Below, piece after piece: positions 43,962 to 50,338 of a stretch of 64,000 bases of DNA. The stretch comes from Verrucomicrobiales bacterium (GTDB lineage: Bacteria > Verrucomicrobiota > Verrucomicrobiia > Verrucomicrobiales > SLCJ01). The notes beneath the pieces are model-generated. The model was not told the origin of the DNA. It worked only from the letters and a program-made list of their open reading frames with translations, and ran no database searches. Numbering within the stretch: the first letter of the stretch is position 1; every line of letters begins with the position of its first letter. The position numbers and the translations under genes were made by a program. The stretch spans positions 32,031 to 96,030 of the forward strand of contig JBJTQJ010000014.1 in the NCBI GenBank assembly GCA_046075565.1. Direction: 5' to 3'.

Positions 43962-44702
43962 ATGAATCTCCCCACAGAATTCCGCAACCGCACCGGTGAA
44001 CGCATCGACCATGTCTTTCATCCCGGAGTCGGCGAGGTGAAGGAAAACACGATTGTCATTATTGCCCACGGTCTGACGGGCAACCTTGATCGCCCGCAAC
44101 TCGCCGCGCTCGCGGATGGTCTTTCGGAACGGGGCTGGCCCTGCTTGCGCATCAGCTATCCGGGAAACGGGAATTCCGAAGGAAATTTCGGAGATTGCAC
44201 CATCACGAAAGAAGCCAACGATCTAACAGATCTGCTGGATCTCTTGCCCGCTAATTGCCGCATCGCCTACGCCGGTCACAGCATGGGCGGTGCCGTGGGA
44301 GCGATGGCCGCCGCCCGGGACGCTAGAATCCAGACACTGGTTTCGCTCGCGGGCATGGTTCACACCGCCGCATTCTACGAACGCGAATTCGGTTCCCTGG
44401 TTCCCGACCGGGATTGCCTGTGGGAAGAAGAGCAATTTCCTCTCTCCGCCGCTTTCGCCAATGATCTCCGCAGCATGGGCGATGTGCTGGCGTCCGCCAC
44501 CCGCGTGACCGTACCGTGGTTGTTCCTTCATGGAGCGGAGGATGATCTGGTGCCGGTGCAGGACAGCCGCGACGCTTATGCTGTTGCCCCGGGCCCGAAA
44601 AAAATCGTCGAGATTCCAGATGCCGGCCACTCATTCGATGAAAGCAGCTATGCGGTGCTGGTCCGGGAGATCGACGAATGGCTGCGCGCCCATCTGGGGT
44701 AA
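43962..44702 (+). CDS. alpha/beta hydrolase
   Basis: AHGLTG, GHSMGG, HGAEDDLV and GHSF triad. Confidence 0.9.
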   Translation: MNLPTEFRNRTGERIDHVFHPGVGEVKENTIVIIAHGLTGNLDRPQLAALADGLSERGWPCLRISYPGNGNSEGNFGDCTITKEANDLTDLLDLLPANCRIAYAGHSMGGAVGAMAAARDARIQTLVSLAGMVHTAAFYEREFGSLVPDRDCLWEEEQFPLSAAFANDLRSMGDVLASATRVTVPWLFLHGAEDDLVPVQDSRDAYAVAPGPKKIVEIPDAGHSFDESSYAVLVREIDEWLRAHLG

Positions 44703-44816
44703 ATCTACAAATGGACGTGAACACTTTGGCGATGCGCCAGGAAGCGTGCCCATCCCCAAAAGTATGGGATTCCGCTCAGGCTCCGCGATTCTTGATTCAA
44801 TCGAAAAATTTCCCGC

Positions 44817-44844
44817 TTGCAATATCGAGTCGTGAATTTACAAT
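44817..44844 (+). promoter_or_regulatory. sigma70-like promoter of the putative metal operon
   Basis: TTGCAA-16 nt-TACAAT upstream of 44878. Confidence 0.5.
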
Positions 44845-44877
44845 GAAAGGTCCTCGTGCCGCCAATTCTACGGCGAA

Positions 44878-45285
44878 TTGAAATCACTTCTAAAATCCCT
44901 CTTCACGGTGGCCGCCTGCTTGTATCTCGGCGGGTCCCACCTGGCCGTGCTTCAGGTGGTGGCGTGGACGGGCATGCTTGTGACCTACAGCAAAGAGGAC
45001 GGATTTTCGACCGGGTTGAAAGACACCTTCAGCGGGGCAAAGCCTTGCTGCATGTGCAAGGCGATACGCTCCGCGCAAAAAGCGGAGACCGATGAAACAA
45101 AAGGAGCCCCGGGTTCGGGCGCGAACTCCCTAGCCAAACTCGCCAAGGAGATGTTGGCCGGCAAAATCCCTTCCGGGATCGTGTTGATCCCAAGTCCGGC
45201 GAAAAAGCCGGAATTCCCAACCGGCGGAACAATGTGCGCACGCGGCGAACCACCGCCCGTGCCCCCTCCGCGGCATCTTGTTTGA
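44878..45285 (+). CDS. small membrane/exported CxxC protein with C-terminal polyproline (DUF2946/CutF-like leader candidate)
   Basis: hydrophobic N-terminus, KPCCMCKAI and C-terminal RGEPPPVPPPR; TTG start. Confidence 0.7.
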   Translation: MKSLLKSLFTVAACLYLGGSHLAVLQVVAWTGMLVTYSKEDGFSTGLKDTFSGAKPCCMCKAIRSAQKAETDETKGAPGSGANSLAKLAKEMLAGKIPSGIVLIPSPAKKPEFPTGGTMCARGEPPPVPPPRHLV

Positions 45286-45465
45286 TCCAAGATCCGCCTT
45301 GTCTCTTTGAAGGTCCACGGCCATCGGCCTTGTAGATCCGAGGACAGGCAATCTGAAATCCCTTTGGGGAGAGCAGTGCCCGCGTGTCGGCACCACAAGA
45401 ACTCCCCTTACGACTCTGGTCGCGCGAATCCGGTCCAACCGGCTGCGCGAGGACAACCGGCCAGA

Positions 45466-45499
45466 CCTCCTGTCGGGCACCCCCGTGTCCGGCAGGAGG
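45466..45499 (+). promoter_or_regulatory. 15-bp stem-loop containing AGGAGG
   Basis: CCTCCTGTCGGGCAC-CCCC-GTGTCCGGCAGGAGG, fully paired if two G-U pairs are allowed. Confidence 0.6.
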
Positions 45500-45520
45500 A
45501 CAGACCGCATCGACAATCCA

Positions 45521-46198
45521 ATGACGAACATTTTCCAAAGTATCACATCTGGCTTCGCCAAAGAGCGTTGCCGAGGGATGACCCTCGCCGAGCTGCTCTT
45601 CTCCATCACCCTCATCATGGTCCTTGCTCTTTTGATCGCCGGTGGCTCGGCCAAGCTCAATGAACGGAGCAAGGCCACCCGCTGCTGCGCCAATCTCCGG
45701 GCGCTCGCGATGGCCTCCATCCAGTATGCCAGCGAAAATTCACTTTCACTCCCCGCGTCATCGCACCAGCGTCGCTCTGGAATAAAGTCCTGGACAGTTT
45801 CACTCGGAGACTACCTGCAGGATCGCTCGGTTTTCCGATGTCCATGTGACGAAAATGAAGGGCGAGCGCACAGCTATGCATTGAACGACATGGTGACCGT
45901 GAACCCGCCCGGGGCGCCGAGCAGCAACTACTCACGTCTTCCCGCCATTCCGCAGCCAAGTCACACCATCCTTTTCGCAGAGATGACCCCTGGCTATGAA
46001 AACTCGGATCATTTCCATTTTTCCTACTTTCAAGCGGCCAGACGCCTTCCACCGGCTGTTTTCACGGCGGCGGTCGCGCATGAACGCCATTTCGGGGGCG
46101 CTTGTTATGCTTTCACAGACGGACATGCCGAATGGCTCACGGCCAATGAAGTGGATGCACGACTCACCAACCCCGACAGCGGTTTTGTCTTTCCCTGA
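45521..46198 (+). CDS. prepilin-type N-terminal cleavage / H-X9-DG domain protein
   Basis: RG|MTLAELL class III signal, CCANLRAL, FRCPCD and HFGGACYAFTDG (H-X9-DG). Confidence 0.85.
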   Translation: MTNIFQSITSGFAKERCRGMTLAELLFSITLIMVLALLIAGGSAKLNERSKATRCCANLRALAMASIQYASENSLSLPASSHQRRSGIKSWTVSLGDYLQDRSVFRCPCDENEGRAHSYALNDMVTVNPPGAPSSNYSRLPAIPQPSHTILFAEMTPGYENSDHFHFSYFQAARRLPPAVFTAAVAHERHFGGACYAFTDGHAEWLTANEVDARLTNPDSGFVFP

Positions 46199-46234
46199 AT
46201 ACCACACCACTCCTGTTCAACATCCGAAACTCTC

Positions 46235-47176
46235 ATGATATCCAATTCCATAACCTGCCTCCACGGACATCGCAAATCGTTAGCCGGAAACATTCTCGCC
46301 GTATTCCTGATGCTCTTCGCAAGTGCCGGGGCGCACGATCATTATGCGGCAGGCATTGACGATCTCAATGCGAATGGAAAACCCGACGCGGGCGAGCCCT
46401 TGAAACTCGTGGGCACCACCGGCGAGTCGAAAATCCGGCATCTTCTCGCCCGACCTGTCGGCCAGCGCTGCGGCGGCCATTACATGCTGGACGAATTCCC
46501 GCGCACCTTGCACCCGTTTGAAAGCTTTGCCCTGACCGCCTTGTCGGATGGACAATTCGGTGACAAGTCACCAAATCACGCGCATACCGGAACCTGGATT
46601 TGGGTTGAAATCATGGCAGTAAGCGGGCCTGAAGGAGGGATTTTTGGATTTTGGGAGGCCGGCCAGCAGGGACAAGGAAACTCTCCGACCCACGCGATGA
46701 TTGCCAACCAACCCACCGGCAATCCCGCTTTCGTCTTGAGCGAAGGAATCGATGATGAGGAAGAAGATCCATCCGGCCACATCCATGGCCGAGCCTGGAG
46801 CGCTAACAAACCAGGTGAGTATGCCCTCACATTTCGCCTGATTGACCGCTCAACCACCGGTCCGAATGACGGGCCATGGCATACCCCGAGCCGCTCCTAC
46901 ACCTATCAATTCAAAACCGGCCCAGCATTCCAACCGGTCATAACGCGCGCTCCCGGCGGGCACGTCGTCCTGATCTGGCCCGCCCGCATCGGAATATTCG
47001 AGAACTACGAAACAGGACTCCCATTCGGAATCAACAGGGCACTATCGCCTGCCGGACCTTGGACCAAGATCGGGGAAATCATCGCCGGAACCACCGATAC
47101 CGTCAGCTTTACCGATACATCTCCTCCACCCGGAGCCGCTTTTTACCGACTTGATTTCCAGTGGTCTCCGCCATGA
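46235..47176 (+). CDS. secreted His-motif protein, putative metal binding
   Basis: signal peptide ending AGA|HDHY; HAHTG and GHIHGRAWSANKPGEY; C-terminal FTDTSPPPGAAFYRL. Confidence 0.7.
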   Translation: MISNSITCLHGHRKSLAGNILAVFLMLFASAGAHDHYAAGIDDLNANGKPDAGEPLKLVGTTGESKIRHLLARPVGQRCGGHYMLDEFPRTLHPFESFALTALSDGQFGDKSPNHAHTGTWIWVEIMAVSGPEGGIFGFWEAGQQGQGNSPTHAMIANQPTGNPAFVLSEGIDDEEEDPSGHIHGRAWSANKPGEYALTFRLIDRSTTGPNDGPWHTPSRSYTYQFKTGPAFQPVITRAPGGHVVLIWPARIGIFENYETGLPFGINRALSPAGPWTKIGEIIAGTTDTVSFTDTSPPPGAAFYRLDFQWSPP

Positions 47177-47247
47177 AATCCGTTTGTAGATCCTCACGAC
47201 ATTTCCCTTCTATCTCAAATCAAAAAACAATGACAAACTGAACAAAC

Positions 47248-48090
47248 ATGAACCACACAAACCAAACGAACCCGTATAGTCTCCCCGGCCATTCGATAGC
47301 AGCACCCACCGCTTTGGCGATTCTTGGTCTGACAATCTCGACGGGAACAGCACTAGCCCACCTCACATATACGGGGAGAAATTTCGGCTCCATCATGCCA
47401 AATCCGGCGGGGGCCACTGCTTCTCTGACGGCCAATGTTTCGAGTAGCTTCGGCTGGGCCGACGCCACGGACCTGGATCTCGGAGACAGCCATCGCACCC
47501 GGGCCTTCCGGTTCACTTTGACCGGGCAGGGATACGTGCGCATCGGTGTCACGGCGACAAACTCGTCGGTTTTTTACCCCGCTTATTCCCTCTATTCAGG
47601 ATTAGCACAAGTGCCACCGGAAAATCCGGGCCACGACGGTTCGGCGGTGTCTCAAGCCTGGCTGGCCACTCTACCCGGCTCCCAGGAGGGAGTGTTCAAT
47701 GCCCTCGGAGATTGGGCGATTGGAAATGATCCGCTGCTCGATGCGCAGAGCAATGTCCTCATCCCTGCCTCGCTGCGGCATTTGGCTTACATCGCCCATT
47801 TCGCCGATGGAAGCGCCTCCAATTATGGCCCAGCAAGCGGTCTCAACGGCGATGGACTTGCCGATGGCTATGTGGAAGGCGGCTTGCTCCTGGGACCAGC
47901 AGATTACACCATTGTCGTTGGAGGCGGCGACTATGCCGCTCAACTGACACAGACCGGCCCTACCTATCCCAGTTTCCCGGTCCGCGTGGACCTTTTCGTC
48001 ATTCCCGAACCGGGAACCGGAGCGCTCGCCCTCGCGGGCATGTTCATAACCCTTCTTCGAAGACGGAAAATGGGTATTCTTGAATCCTGA
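47248..48090 (+). CDS. PEP-CTERM sorting domain surface protein
   Basis: signal peptide ALA|HLTY; C-terminal VIPEPGTGALALAGMFITLLRRRK. Confidence 0.9.
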   Translation: MNHTNQTNPYSLPGHSIAAPTALAILGLTISTGTALAHLTYTGRNFGSIMPNPAGATASLTANVSSSFGWADATDLDLGDSHRTRAFRFTLTGQGYVRIGVTATNSSVFYPAYSLYSGLAQVPPENPGHDGSAVSQAWLATLPGSQEGVFNALGDWAIGNDPLLDAQSNVLIPASLRHLAYIAHFADGSASNYGPASGLNGDGLADGYVEGGLLLGPADYTIVVGGGDYAAQLTQTGPTYPSFPVRVDLFVIPEPGTGALALAGMFITLLRRRKMGILES

Positions 48091-48132
48091 TGCCGACCCT
48101 CCGCTCGGTTTGGAACAAAAATTTCACTCCCT

Positions 48133-49380
48133 TTACGCAAAACGATCCGGATCCAGGAGCGACAGATCGATTCCCGTCCGTTCACCATCGACGATGGCTC
48201 CGGCCAATTGACCGGTGATGGGGGCGAGGCTCAGGCCCATCATGGCATGGCCGGTGGCGATGACGAGATTGCTCGCGGCTTTGGTGCGCCCCAGATACGG
48301 CATGCCATCGGGAGAACAGGGGCGGAGACCGCGCCATGGTTCGATGCCCTGGAAATGCGACTCCTCGAAAGCGGGATAGTATTGGCTGGCGGCGCGGATG
48401 ATGCCATGCACCCGGCGGCGGGTGATTGATTCGTCGCGCCCGGCGATTTCCATGGTTCCGCCGAAACGGAGTTGCCCGTTCATGGGTGTGACCGCAACGC
48501 GGGCTTCGGTGAAGATGGCGCACTTGCGGGGAAGTTGGACCGGCTCCTTCACGGTGAGGCTGTAGCCTTTGCCCGATTGCATCGGAAGCCGCAAGTCGAG
48601 CCCGTCAAGCATGGTGTCAGACCAAGAGCCGGCGGCCAGAATGAATTCATCACCTGCGACTTCGCCCCGGTTTGTCTTCAAGGCGGCGAGCTTCTTTCTC
48701 TCTTTTCGCCAGCCCAAGGCCTCGGCTTGCCAAACGAAGTCGCATCCCTCGTCGAGCAAAGCGCTCTCAAGCGCCGCGATGAATTTCTCCGGTGATAGAT
48801 GCGCATCCTTTGGATAGAGCACACCTCCAACCGCCGATGTGGTCACACCAGGTTCGGCTTCGGCCAAACCTTTGGCATCGAGCACCTCGGCGGGGATGCC
48901 GAGTTTCTTCGCTTTCGCCGCCGCGGCTGCTTCTTCCTCGAGTCCGTGTCCTGTGCGGCAGAGCATGATCAATCCGTCGGTCACGAGTCCGAGATCTTGG
49001 CCGCTTTCCTGCCAGTTGATGAAAAGTTGGCGGCTGGCGAGGCTCAAGTCGCGAATCAGGGGAGCGCACCGGTTCACATGCTCCCGCGTGGCAGCGCGCA
49101 TGAACTTCCAGCCCCAGTCGAGAAGTCCGGCATCAATGCGTGGTTTGATGAAAAACGGACTTTCGGGATTCCACATCCATTTTAATCCGAGGGCAACCAT
49201 CCCCGGCGCGGCCAACGGCACAAAGTGACTGGGCACAATCATTCCGGCATTGCCATAGGAACAGCCATCGCGTCTTTGTGGCTTTCGCTCGACTACCGTG
49301 ACTTCATGCCCGCGGCGGCGGCAGGCGAGCGCGCAGGATAAACCGATGACCCCTGCTCCGAGAATGACGACGCGCGACAT
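48133..49380 (-). CDS. D-amino acid dehydrogenase family (probable D-hydroxyproline dehydrogenase)
   Basis: GAGVIG, SYGNAG, GKGYS, GLRPCSPDG and GHAMMG; operon context. Confidence 0.85.
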   Translation of the reverse strand: MSRVVILGAGVIGLSCALACRRRGHEVTVVERKPQRRDGCSYGNAGMIVPSHFVPLAAPGMVALGLKWMWNPESPFFIKPRIDAGLLDWGWKFMRAATREHVNRCAPLIRDLSLASRQLFINWQESGQDLGLVTDGLIMLCRTGHGLEEEAAAAAKAKKLGIPAEVLDAKGLAEAEPGVTTSAVGGVLYPKDAHLSPEKFIAALESALLDEGCDFVWQAEALGWRKERKKLAALKTNRGEVAGDEFILAAGSWSDTMLDGLDLRLPMQSGKGYSLTVKEPVQLPRKCAIFTEARVAVTPMNGQLRFGGTMEIAGRDESITRRRVHGIIRAASQYYPAFEESHFQGIEPWRGLRPCSPDGMPYLGRTKAASNLVIATGHAMMGLSLAPITGQLAGAIVDGERTGIDLSLLDPDRFA

Positions 49381-49396
49381 AAGAATGATGAAATTG

Positions 49397-50338
49397 TTAG
49401 TCCAGGGCACCGGGCCGGATGCCGCAGCGGAGCGGGTCCTCCGCTTCCAGAATCAATATGGAATCGGCCGTGACGTGAGCGCGTCCGGTGACGACCGGGC
49501 GGATCGAACCGCTCTCGCGATCCTGCCAAGTGAAGCTCCCTTGGAATTTCGTGCCGAGAATGCTTTCCTGGATCCACGTTTCACCTTCTTCAAGGTCGCC
49601 ATCGGCGGCGAGGCAGGCGAGTTTTGCGCTTGTTCCGGTTCCACACGGGGAGCGGTCATAGGCTCCGCCGGGGCAAAGAACAAAGTTGCGGGCATCTCCT
49701 CCACTGGCCGGCGGTCCGAAGAACTCCACATGATCGACATCGGGGTAGCCGGCAGCACGCACGGCCTCCATGATGGCGATACTATCGCGGGTTAGATTCG
49801 TGGCTTGCGAGACATGCAGGACACGTTCGCCCGCCGGAACGAGGAAAAAGGTATTGCCGCCCCAGACGACATCACCGGAGACGCGGCCGAGGCCGGGAAC
49901 CTCCACCGTGACATCCTTGGCCAGACGTCGGCTGGACACGTTCCGCACGGAGATCGAAGCATCATCATGCAGCACTGCCTTGACAATGCCGACGGGTGTT
50001 TCGAAAGAGTGTTCACCAGGCCCGATTTTTCCCAACCAGTCGAGTGTGCGCACGACGCCGATGAGGCCATGGCCGCACATGCCGAGGTAACCCACGTTGT
50101 TAAAGAAGACCACCGCGTTGACACATTCCTCAACACGCGAGGGAGCCAGCCATGCACCAACGAGGACATCCGAGCCCCGAGGTTCGTTGACAATAGCGGA
50201 CCGCCAATGATCATGTTGGTCGCGCAGCTCGGCAAGCATCCCGGGGGCGGTATCCGCAATCAAGGCCGGGCCACCTTCAATAACGACCCGGGTCGGCTCA
50301 CCTGCGGTATGCGAATCAATGACCCTGATTTTTTCCAT
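49397..50338 (-). CDS. 4-hydroxyproline 2-epimerase (proline racemase family)
   Basis: DSHTAGEPTR, EPRGSDVLVG, GMCGHG, NFVLCPG and DRSPCGTGTSAK. Confidence 0.9.
   Translation of the reverse strand: MEKIRVIDSHTAGEPTRVVIEGGPALIADTAPGMLAELRDQHDHWRSAIVNEPRGSDVLVGAWLAPSRVEECVNAVVFFNNVGYLGMCGHGLIGVVRTLDWLGKIGPGEHSFETPVGIVKAVLHDDASISVRNVSSRRLAKDVTVEVPGLGRVSGDVVWGGNTFFLVPAGERVLHVSQATNLTRDSIAIMEAVRAAGYPDVDHVEFFGPPASGGDARNFVLCPGGAYDRSPCGTGTSAKLACLAADGDLEEGETWIQESILGTKFQGSFTWQDRESGSIRPVVTGRAHVTADSILILEAEDPLRCGIRPGALD

Follow-up and report, generated by a model that had tools for sequence, protein, structure and literature searches.

What does a compact four-gene block in the genome of a Verrucomicrobiales bacterium do, and which metal, if any, does it serve? 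The block occupies positions 44817..48090 of a 64,000-nucleotide stretch of contig JBJTQJ010000014.1, which was analyzed whole and is called the window here. It holds four open reading frames (ORFs), ORF1 to ORF4, all on the + strand. The first-pass annotation, made from the sequence alone, had described four co-oriented genes with Cys- and His-containing motifs and had read them as a metal (Cu, Zn or Ni) capture or handling module of the bacterial surface. The ORF listing confirmed the arrangement of the genes, and motif mapping located all of the motifs claimed for the four proteins (Table 1). Comparative evidence, namely the genes that neighbor relatives of ORF1 and the CorA/MopE fold predicted for ORF4, supported the metal reading and pointed to copper specifically. 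We consider it reasonably probable that the block is an envelope cassette that captures or handles copper and is gated by a leader.

The ORF1 family and its downstream genes

ORF1 has a hydrophobic stretch of ~30 residues after K2 and K6, as judged by eye, which may be a cleavable signal or a signal anchor, followed by the motifs Q..AW..M and PCxxC, and it ends in PPVPPPRHLV-stop, with three residues between PPVPPPR and the TGA codon. No Pfam or NCBIfam model matched it. A word-indexed search returned 31 relatives, and the alignment of 28 sequences showed Q26, A29, W30, M33, V35, G53, P56, C57, C60, A62, P126 and P129-131 to be invariant. When 1.84 billion representatives were searched with a profile, 2,926 ORF1-family clusters were retrieved at E<=1e-3 and 2,220 at E<=1e-10 (representative clusters defined at 50% identity, about 2,900); the best 150 matches were nearly all full-length, in proteins of about 110-220 aa. 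Among 180 family members, Q..AW..M was present in 178 and PC..C in 176, with a His before the Pro in 154, and these two motifs lay exactly 30 apart in 169 of 174. The C-terminal motif P.PPP was found in 124 of the 180, in most of which it is trailed by 1-5 residues. The remaining 56 mostly had a PPPR-like end, and 47 of them had a PP motif within the last 25 residues. The spacing from PC to PxPPP ranged from 61 to 72, with a median of 67.

A scan of one genome per species yielded 447 ORF1 relatives, from which 79 loci were kept. Nearly all of these loci were labeled Verrucomicrobiota; two bear other names and a few are called just 'bacterium'. Loci L026 and L056 carry a verrucomicrobial leader and neighbors in records named Blastochloris and Bifidobacteriaceae metagenome-assembled genome, probably by binning error. 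In a sample of the phylum, the family was present in 44 of 201 genomes and 34 of 104 genera and was concentrated in some lineages; no member was found in 16 sampled genomes belonging to a single genus of the same order. These searches place ORF1 in a large Verrucomicrobiota family that carries no annotation. The nearest named clusters of ORF1 in a language-model comparison were DUF2946, DUF6769, DUF6660 and CzcI (0.89-0.90), with few shared features, and we treated them as a lead only.

ORFs in the 79 loci were called crudely (greedy longest ORFs) and clustered, and the cluster representatives were labeled with Pfam; the resulting downstream counts cover 84 putative leader genes. The first same-strand downstream gene encoded a TonB-dependent receptor in 22 of the 84, a beta-propeller plus di-haem CCP/MauG-like protein of 870-1470 aa in 12, and a cytochrome c in 7. 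It was a singleton in 7 and ORF2-like in 4, and 3 each encoded an HMA protein, a MetA-type outer-membrane barrel or a member of a cluster, 'unk278', that later proved to be an ORF4-like family of divergent sequence. CusF-SCO1 and ORF4-like proteins each accounted for 2, no gene followed in 6 (contig end or opposite strand), and other small classes made up the remainder. Within the first five downstream genes, we counted MauG-like proteins and TonB receptors at 22 leaders each, CusF-SCO1 fusions at 16, ORF4-like proteins at 13, PepSY_TM at 8, HMA at 7 and CopC at 2. Because the downstream genes include TonB receptor/PepSY, MauG-like, CusF-SCO1, HMA and CopC genes, the ORF1 family is tied by its neighborhoods to copper genes. 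The distance from the family member to the downstream gene had a median of about 210 nt. Some genomes encode several copies, each heading its own operon (L033, L040, L052, L067 and L077; three in G123).

These neighborhoods contained several recurrent proteins. Giants of 870-1470 aa that combine a propeller, a di-haem CCP/MauG-like domain and cytochrome c lie directly behind leaders at L004:6620-9289, L015:6732-9368 and in ~20 more loci. ORF4-like PEP-CTERM proteins usually come next after them, a CorB/CorA-like pairing outside methanotrophs. Proteins of ~300 aa with HHG(R/Q)DF at the start of the predicted mature form and, like many outer-membrane barrels, ...W(R/K)F at the end recurred in leader-headed copper loci without a Pfam match (L004:10047-10931, L005:2254-3081 and L029:6733-7653). 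The fusions of CusF with an SCO1/SenC domain are exemplified by L061:8248-9168 and L071:8977-9891.

Comparison of ORF1 with CutF and CruR

CutF-like proteins have been defined as proteins of <150 aa that bear a signal peptide, have a PP motif among their last 15 residues and are encoded within 1000 nt of a neighbor on the same strand (PMC9973294). ORF1 agrees with these rules in its size, its PP-motif end, the Cys/His motif in its putatively exported part and the same-strand gene 235 nt downstream. Most members of its family are 110-190 aa long. As far as cutFOG of Rhodobacter capsulatus has been described, CutF and ORF1 are both small proteins with a hydrophobic export signal, putative in ORF1, a Cys motif and PPPR near the stop codon, and each opens an operon of copper-related genes on its own strand. 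The functional motif of CutF is P109-EPEGPPPRL-118, in which a change of PPP to PAP abolishes Cu regulation (bioRxiv 10.1101/2025.02.05.636593), and the action of CutF has been proposed to be cis-acting and coupled to translation (PMC9973294, bioRxiv 10.1101/2025.02.05.636593). The ends of the two proteins, GPPPRL in CutF and PPVPPPR in ORF1, have the PPPR core in common. ORF1 differs from CutF in that its CxxC is preceded by His, whereas CutF has CxxxC; in the invariant Q..AW..M membrane segment of its family; in its cargo, which is not a multicopper oxidase; and in the gap to the next gene, which is <100 nt in CutF, with an adjacent stem-loop that shields the Shine-Dalgarno (SD) sequence.

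The long ORF1-ORF2 leader is closer to that of CruR than to that of CutF. CruR (Bp2923) of Bordetella pertussis, an upstream ORF of the DUF2946 type, resembles ORF1 in its CxxC and in a long intergenic region, of 162 nt there (PMC9426467). The order cruR-bfrG-bp2921 (PMC9426467) is matched in the ORF1 family by leader, TonB receptor and PepSY: of the 84 leaders, 22 head a receptor gene, which is followed by PepSY_TM in 8. The likely logic described for CruR, a copper-acquisition system shut off by copper (PMC9426467), is taken here as common to the ORF1 family. In contrast, the arrest motif is RAPP in CruR and PPPR in ORF1, and the distance from CXXC to this motif is 45 residues there and 61-72 in the ORF1 family. 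In addition, elongation factor P (EF-P) is described as uninvolved in CruR, where Rho terminates (PMC9426467). From these comparisons we infer that ORF1 works like a CutF/CruR-type leader, as a member of the rule-based CutF-like class with no demonstrated membership of Pfam DUF2946. The analogy drawn in the first-pass annotation thus held for size, hydrophobic N-terminus, Cys motif, PPPR end and position at the head of the operon, but homology to DUF2946 was not detected.

A rival account, to which we give a low but serious probability, is that ORF1 is a small and stable protein of the membrane, for instance a tethered copper chaperone or a thiol assembly factor, that acts in trans or as a partner of the cargo, with PPPR as a structural or interaction motif. 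The invariant Q..AW..M and its exact 30-residue spacing to PCxxC (169/174) favor a folded, membrane-embedded function. Yet the linker between the Cys motif and PPPR lacks sequence conservation although its length is bounded (61-72), and the Atlas model of ORF1 is poor (predicted local distance difference test (pLDDT) 0.59). Cassettes without the leader exist, since an ORF1 match is missing from 3 of the 43 ORF2-ORF3 loci that have room upstream, and no conserved RNA switch was detected in the family, as would suit a protein active in its own right. Against this, the ORF1-family gene is always the first gene in same-strand operons of varied content, and multiple copies per genome, each before its own operon, are typical of cis-acting leaders. 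PPPR followed by a few residues and the stop codon is also the motif that is functional in CutF (bioRxiv 10.1101/2025.02.05.636593).

Genuine DUF2946-type proteins, with CxxC and an R[AG]PP end, were observed in a few Verrucomicrobiota, at L081:1486-1833(-), L083:1489-1860(-), L084:1489-1890(-) and L090:1495-1821(-). DUF2946 exceeded the Pfam cut-off in 2 of 151 genomes, and two unrelated leader types thus coexist in the phylum. In the group of 81 genomes searched via the L026 genome, which is probably again Verrucomicrobiota, no genome gave a DUF2946 match.

Conservation of the cassette

A tblastn search of the leader-centered loci showed L002, L003, L011 and L032 to carry ORF2-, ORF3- and ORF4-like genes, and gave ORF2-like matches in 12 of the 79. 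A second scan, of metagenomes and centered on ORF3, returned 275 relatives, from which 80 loci were kept and searched with hidden Markov models of the four families. Where there was room upstream (at least 1.5 kb), an ORF2-like gene lay directly upstream of ORF3 in 43 of 48 loci, and both ORF1-like and ORF2-like genes were present upstream in 40 of the 48. Of 49 loci that had room downstream, 23 contained an ORF4-like gene, and all four families were present in 15 of 40. Extra ORF3 paralogs were common. The cassettes were flanked by CusF-SCO1 in 3 loci and by MauG-like genes in 3, and no TonB-receptor match was found beside them. The core of the cassette is ORF1-ORF2-ORF3, and ORF4 is a frequent fourth gene. 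The first-pass annotation had made its reading depend on conserved gene order and on conserved His and Cys residues; the order ORF1-ORF2-ORF3 proved to be kept, and the residues are invariant or nearly so in the family alignments of all four proteins.

The cargo proteins

The sequence of ORF4 contains A|HLTY (His38), GWAD (Trp70), PEP at residue 253, a hydrophobic stretch and RRRK. Of 374 relatives found, 42 were aligned, and the invariant residues include H38, the predicted first mature residue, as well as Y41, R44, W70, H82, H129 and D130. The PEP-CTERM tail VIPEPGTGALALAGMFITLLRRRK is visible, although its scores lie just below the cut-offs (PF07589, 16.9 versus 20.7; TIGR02595, 15.1 versus 16); PF07589 is carried by many ORF4 homologs. 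The ORF4 model (pLDDT 85.6) gave CorA (4bz4, E 4.3e-9) and MopE (2vov, E 2.2e-6) as the top Foldseek matches. With VIA-align, the model superposed on 174 of the 199 residues of CorA 4bz4_A at Z 16.1 and a root-mean-square deviation of 3.4 A, and on MopE 2vov at Z 13.7 over 185 residues, whereas the next, unrelated entries were near Z 10 over ~100 residues. As modeled, ORF4 has the overall fold of CorA/MopE.

The ORF4 model thus covers almost the entire chain of CorA of Methylomicrobium album BG8 (PDB 4BZ4), and it also superposes on MopE of Methylococcus capsulatus (PDB 2VOV). These two proteins are surface-exposed, as ORF4 is predicted to be. CorA, whose gene is co-transcribed with that of the MauG-like CorB, binds Cu(I) via the kynurenine Kyn62, H64 and H114 (PMC3912023). 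Judging by the offset of the aligned ranges, W70 of ORF4 would fall at Kyn62, which would place an invariant Trp close to where the kynurenine precursor lies, and D72 would fall at H64; the invariant H129 could stand for H114. Unlike CorA and MopE, ORF4 has a PEP-CTERM anchor and invariant His residues of its own (H38, H82 and H129), and it shows no match to them at the sequence level; a search of PDB sequences with the ORF4 family profile gave 0 matches at E<=10. The host is, by these data, no known methanotroph lineage, in contrast to the hosts of CorA and MopE. ORF4 relatives adjoin MauG-like di-haem enzymes in 13 leader-centered loci, and the source genome has one unlinked CCP_MauG gene, on contig 94.

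Some long ORF4-like proteins have a second domain with GWTH and weak matches to PF18252 (Cu_bind_CorA), as at L072:11055-12359, L064:11085-12380 and L016:9137-10210; other long relatives (P0084 and P0091) bear DUF7453 as the second domain instead. Because the second domain of the former has GWTH and these weak matches, the ORF4-like domain resembles a paralog in which the site has been altered. PF18252 matched 0 of 201 phylum genomes at E<=1e-4, but the controls were also without a match, and hence this result is uninformative on absence.

ORF3 is a predicted secreted protein for which 100 relatives were found and 46 aligned. D178, P179, G181, H182, H184 and R186 of the DPSGHIHGR motif are invariant, and H34 and H36 of the HDH motif are kept in at least 90%. 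Because H34 comes after an A-x-A-type site, mature ORF3 probably begins with H-D-H. The model (pLDDT 89.2) shows an FN3-like C-terminal domain at residues 230-313 (VIA-align Z 6-7.5). In the whole-protein model, the N-terminal domain had no specific fold match, and the Foldseek pdb rows were generic Ig/FN3-type entries. The choice-of-anchor M model (NF038134) scored 19.3 bits on ORF3 against a cut-off of 55 (E 9e-4). In the family, 22 of 46 sequences matched NF038134 weakly, with a best E of 5.2e-6, and 1 matched TIGR03769, so that kinship to choice-of-anchor M is distant at most. Distant ORF3 relatives carry a PEP-CTERM anchor in place of the FN3-like tail.

If the cassette served Zn or Ni rather than copper, its His-rich sites, including the N-terminal X-X-His of ORF3, would be used for scavenging; we regard this as decidedly improbable. 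Motifs made of His alone, and the H-D-H with which mature ORF3 is predicted to begin, are compatible with Ni(II) or Zn too, and the N-terminal domain of ORF3 is distantly like choice-of-anchor M/TIGR03769. This domain is tied to 'anchored repeat' ATP-binding cassette (ABC) transport systems. In Corynebacterium diphtheriae, a cluster with an anchored repeat-type ABC transporter and surface-anchored proteins is described as Zn/Zur-regulated (PMC6711530). The leader, however, has the Cys pair H-P-C-x-x-C. In the CutF-like survey as described, proteins of this class are not all Cu-specific, but those of the Cys type accompany copper genes and those of the His-only type Ni/Co genes (PMC9973294). 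The neighbors of the leader family (CusF, SCO1, CopC, HMA and CorA-fold/MauG-like proteins) and the CorA/MopE fold of ORF4 also speak for copper, and among the 79+80 loci, which were not searched systematically for them, Zur- or Nik-type genes did not come to light.

ORF2 is a DUF1559/H-X9-DG prepilin-like protein. Its likely true start is ATG 45521, which yields the prepilin leader ...KERCRG|MTLAELL, and it carries H82, DHFHF, an H-X9-DG motif that reads H190-FGGACYAFT-DG, and H202. Among 34 members of the subfamily, E24 (the pilin Glu), C55, P78, H82, W91, C107, D110, N122, D123, D163, H164, H166, F167, H190 and D200 are invariant, and H202 is kept in at least 90%. N_methyl (PF07963) matched 32 of the 34 at E<=0.01 and SBP_bac_10 (PF07596, DUF1559) matched 28, but ORF2 of the window itself lies below the cut-offs (N_methyl, 20.7 versus 21.2 bits; TIGR04294, 16.1 versus 19) and has no PF07596 match. 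Its putative prepilin methylation motif and its C-terminal H-X9-DG are common to the DUF1559/H-X9-DG family (PF07596, TIGR04294) of the Planctomycetes, Verrucomicrobia and Chlamydiae (PVC) group, from which its subfamily is set apart by the invariant H82, DHFHF and two Cys, and by its fixed place in a leader-gated cassette. No published function for the DUF1559/H-X9-DG family was found in the searched portions of the literature. The great expansion of H-X9-DG proteins invoked in the first-pass annotation did not extend to this genome, which has just two other weak PF07596 matches. A complex prediction for ORF2 (46-225) with ORF3 (34-313) scored 0.01 versus a mark of 0.32, which speaks neither for nor against binding.

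Very little credence can be given to the view that the block is a generic surface, adhesion or secretion cassette devoid of a metal role, in which the His motifs are structural. FN3-like and beta-sandwich domains are common in adhesins, and exopolysaccharide or biofilm functions are frequently associated with PEP-CTERM proteins. The block also encodes no transporter, just as the first-pass annotation had stated. Against this view, the invariant His and Trp residues fit the logic of metal sites in three different proteins, ORF4 matches CorA and MopE specifically and well above other sandwiches, and the other operons headed by the leader family contain copper genes.

Proposed mechanism

In the copper cassette that we favor, ribosome stalling, copper binding, localization and the sign of regulation are read from the design of the genes and their context. 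ORF1 would be translated at the membrane, steered there by its hydrophobic N-terminus, with the H-P-C-x-x-C site, fixed 30 residues behind Q..AW..M, facing the periplasm. The ribosome would then reach PPVPPPR, which has its PPPR core in common with CutF and is a putative slow spot dependent on EF-P. Copper on the already exported Cys site would alter the dwell of the ribosome at PPVPPPR, and the dwell time would decide whether the 235-nt leader permits expression of ORF2-4. Of the products, ORF2 would be a prepilin-like protein of the DUF1559 type anchored in the inner membrane. ORF3 would be secreted and would combine an H-x-H at its N-terminus and a GHIHGR site with an FN3-like tail, and ORF4, with the copper-protein fold of CorA/MopE, would be anchored at the surface by exosortase. 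The location of the cargo at the surface is suggested by signal, PEP-CTERM and prepilin motifs. Together, ORF2-ORF4 would most likely capture copper or pass it on in the envelope. We lean slightly towards expression at low copper (acquisition, as with CruR and with CorA and MopE) over copper induction, because the long leader resembles that of CruR and because TonB receptors and CorA-like proteins are copper-repressed in known systems.

Three structured RNA elements were found around and behind the ORF1 stop codon (Table 1). Hairpins resembling the one at the stop codon are also present in loci L002 and L003, and the intergenic folding z in four syntenic loci was uneven (-3.7, -4.6, -1.2 and -0.2). 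A ribosome on PPPR would cover the 5' arm of the stop-codon hairpin. A search of 44600-48300 with Rfam gave no match at E<=1. A stall is plausible, and the device that couples it to the downstream genes probably varies across the ORF1 family.

Several results weigh against the copper cassette or against parts of its mechanism. In 83 genes of the ORF1 family, the mean folding z was -0.50 at the stop codon and -0.84 in the intergenic region, against -0.29 inside the ORF, which amounts to no family-wide RNA structure, and the C-G skew across the family revealed no intergenic-specific C>G bubble, unlike the readout of CruR; therefore no readout device was identified. In addition, the SD-holding hairpin of the window lies ~180 nt past the ORF1 stop codon, too distant for direct melting by a stalled ribosome, and the N-terminal segment of ORF1 is constrained beyond the needs of a simple leader. 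By sequence, membership of DUF2946 was rejected: 0 of 28 ORF1 family members matched PF11162 at E<=5, hhalign against five verrucomicrobial DUF2946-like proteins gave a probability of 1.1%, and the hallmarks of DUF2946, a RAPP end and a tightly kept 45-residue spacing, are absent from a family whose spacing ranges from 61 to 72. On the side of the cargo, PF18252 did not match ORF4 at E<=0.1, ORF4 has GWAD, that is, Asp where the W-x-H of CorA has His, and a propeller-MauG-like partner corresponding to the di-haem partners CorB and SACCP is absent from the cassette, and a single query did not retrieve one from the genome. The missing transporter counts here as well. Finally, the cargo of the leader family mixes uptake-type with chaperone- and detoxification-type genes, and the sign of regulation is therefore not fixed by context.

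A bolder version, which we think unlikely as it stands, is a TonB-independent trans-envelope copper relay, in which ORF4 would capture copper at the surface, ORF3 would shuttle it and ORF2 would receive it via its His cluster, all under a nascent-chain sensor switch unrelated in sequence to DUF2946. If this were true, DUF1559/H-X9-DG proteins would be ligand- or metal-binding periplasmic receptors on a pseudopilin scaffold, and copper capture of the kynurenine type or a related one would reach far beyond methanotrophs.

For the leader-gated cassette itself, the mechanism class is already known: the copper-sensing leader peptides CutF and CruR were described in 2021-2025, mainly in Pseudomonadota and Bacteroidota. 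The ORF1 family, the cassette and the DUF1559 link are apparently new, with no description found in the literature searched; the main text of PMC9973294 contains no Verrucomicrob*, and its supplementary list may hold members. That the same design occurs without detectable DUF2946 kinship points either to extreme divergence or to nascent-chain metal sensing having been invented more than once. The cassette provides a first genomic context for three unannotated families, namely a DUF1559 subfamily, a choice-of-anchor-M-like family and PEP-CTERM relatives of CorA/MopE, and gives the DUF1559/H-X9-DG pilin-like family its first testable role. The leader family also maps a modular copper regulon (TonB receptor/PepSY, MauG-like/CorA-like pairs, CusF-SCO1, HMA and CopC) in Verrucomicrobiota abundant in freshwater and soil, habitats in which respiration and N2O reduction are limited by copper supply.

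Layout of the block, flanking genes and genome

The ORFs of the block are separated by 235, 36 and 71 nt, in order from ORF1 to ORF4 (Table 1).

Table 1. Features of the block in window coordinates (MFE, minimum free energy)
Feature	Position	Strand	Remarks
Sigma-70-like promoter candidate, TTGCAA-16-TACAAT	44817..44844	+	9/12 matches, weak
ORF1, 135 aa, TTG start, candidate CutF/CruR-like leader protein	44878..45285	+	TTG backed by alignment of homolog N-termini
ORF1 Q..AW..M, residues 26-33	44953..44976	+	
ORF1 PCxxC, residues 56-60	45043..45057	+	
ORF1 PPVPPPR, residues 126-132	45253..45273	+	
RNA hairpin, 4+6 bp with one bulge, ORF1 stop codon in the loop, then U-rich run	45270..45297	+	Predicted; z -2.1 for a 73-nt segment
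Structured intergenic leader, 235 nt, ORF1-ORF2	45286..45520	+	MFE -123.9 versus -103.8 +/- 5.7 kcal/mol in shuffles, z -3.53
15-bp hairpin, 3' arm holds AGGAGG (45494-45499)	45466..45499	+	21 nt before ATG 45521; from RNA folding
ORF2, 225 aa, DUF1559/H-X9-DG prepilin-like protein	45521..46198	+	Listed ORF from 45485
ORF2 DHFHF, residues 163-167	46007..46021	+	
ORF2 H190-X9-DG, residues 190-201	46088..46123	+	
ORF3, 313 aa, predicted secreted	46235..47176	+	ORF listing, alignment, model
ORF3 HDH, residues 34-36	46334..46342	+	
ORF3 DPSGHIHGR, residues 178-186	46766..46792	+	
ORF4, 280 aa, CorA/MopE-fold model, PEP-CTERM anchor	47248..48090	+	ORF listing, alignment, model
ORF4 PEP, at residue 253	48004..48012	+	

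The promoter-like site that the first-pass annotation had placed before the genes is no commoner than chance would have it: 3 such sites were found in 5 kb, versus 1.8 +/- 1.3 in shuffles. Upstream, an alpha/beta hydrolase gene lies on the same strand as the cassette (window 43962-44702, +), and downstream a convergent gene encodes an FAD-dependent D-amino-acid-dehydrogenase-like protein (window 48133-49410, -). Neither gene recurred beside the cassette in other loci.

The source genome (3.9 Mb in 129 contigs, 100% complete by markers) has a single copy of the ORF1 family. It encodes a prepilin peptidase and two exosortase genes that score over the cut-off. Among sequencing runs, the DNA was traced to four DNA runs of one freshwater-metagenome study, one of which may be its source, and to no RNA run. 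The block, described in the first-pass annotation as more AT-rich than its neighbors, has a GC content of 57.1% versus 59.7% and 60.0% in the 5-kb flanks, and 6% of the segments of that size in the 64 kb reach a GC content as low or lower; the AT-richness is genuine yet modest.

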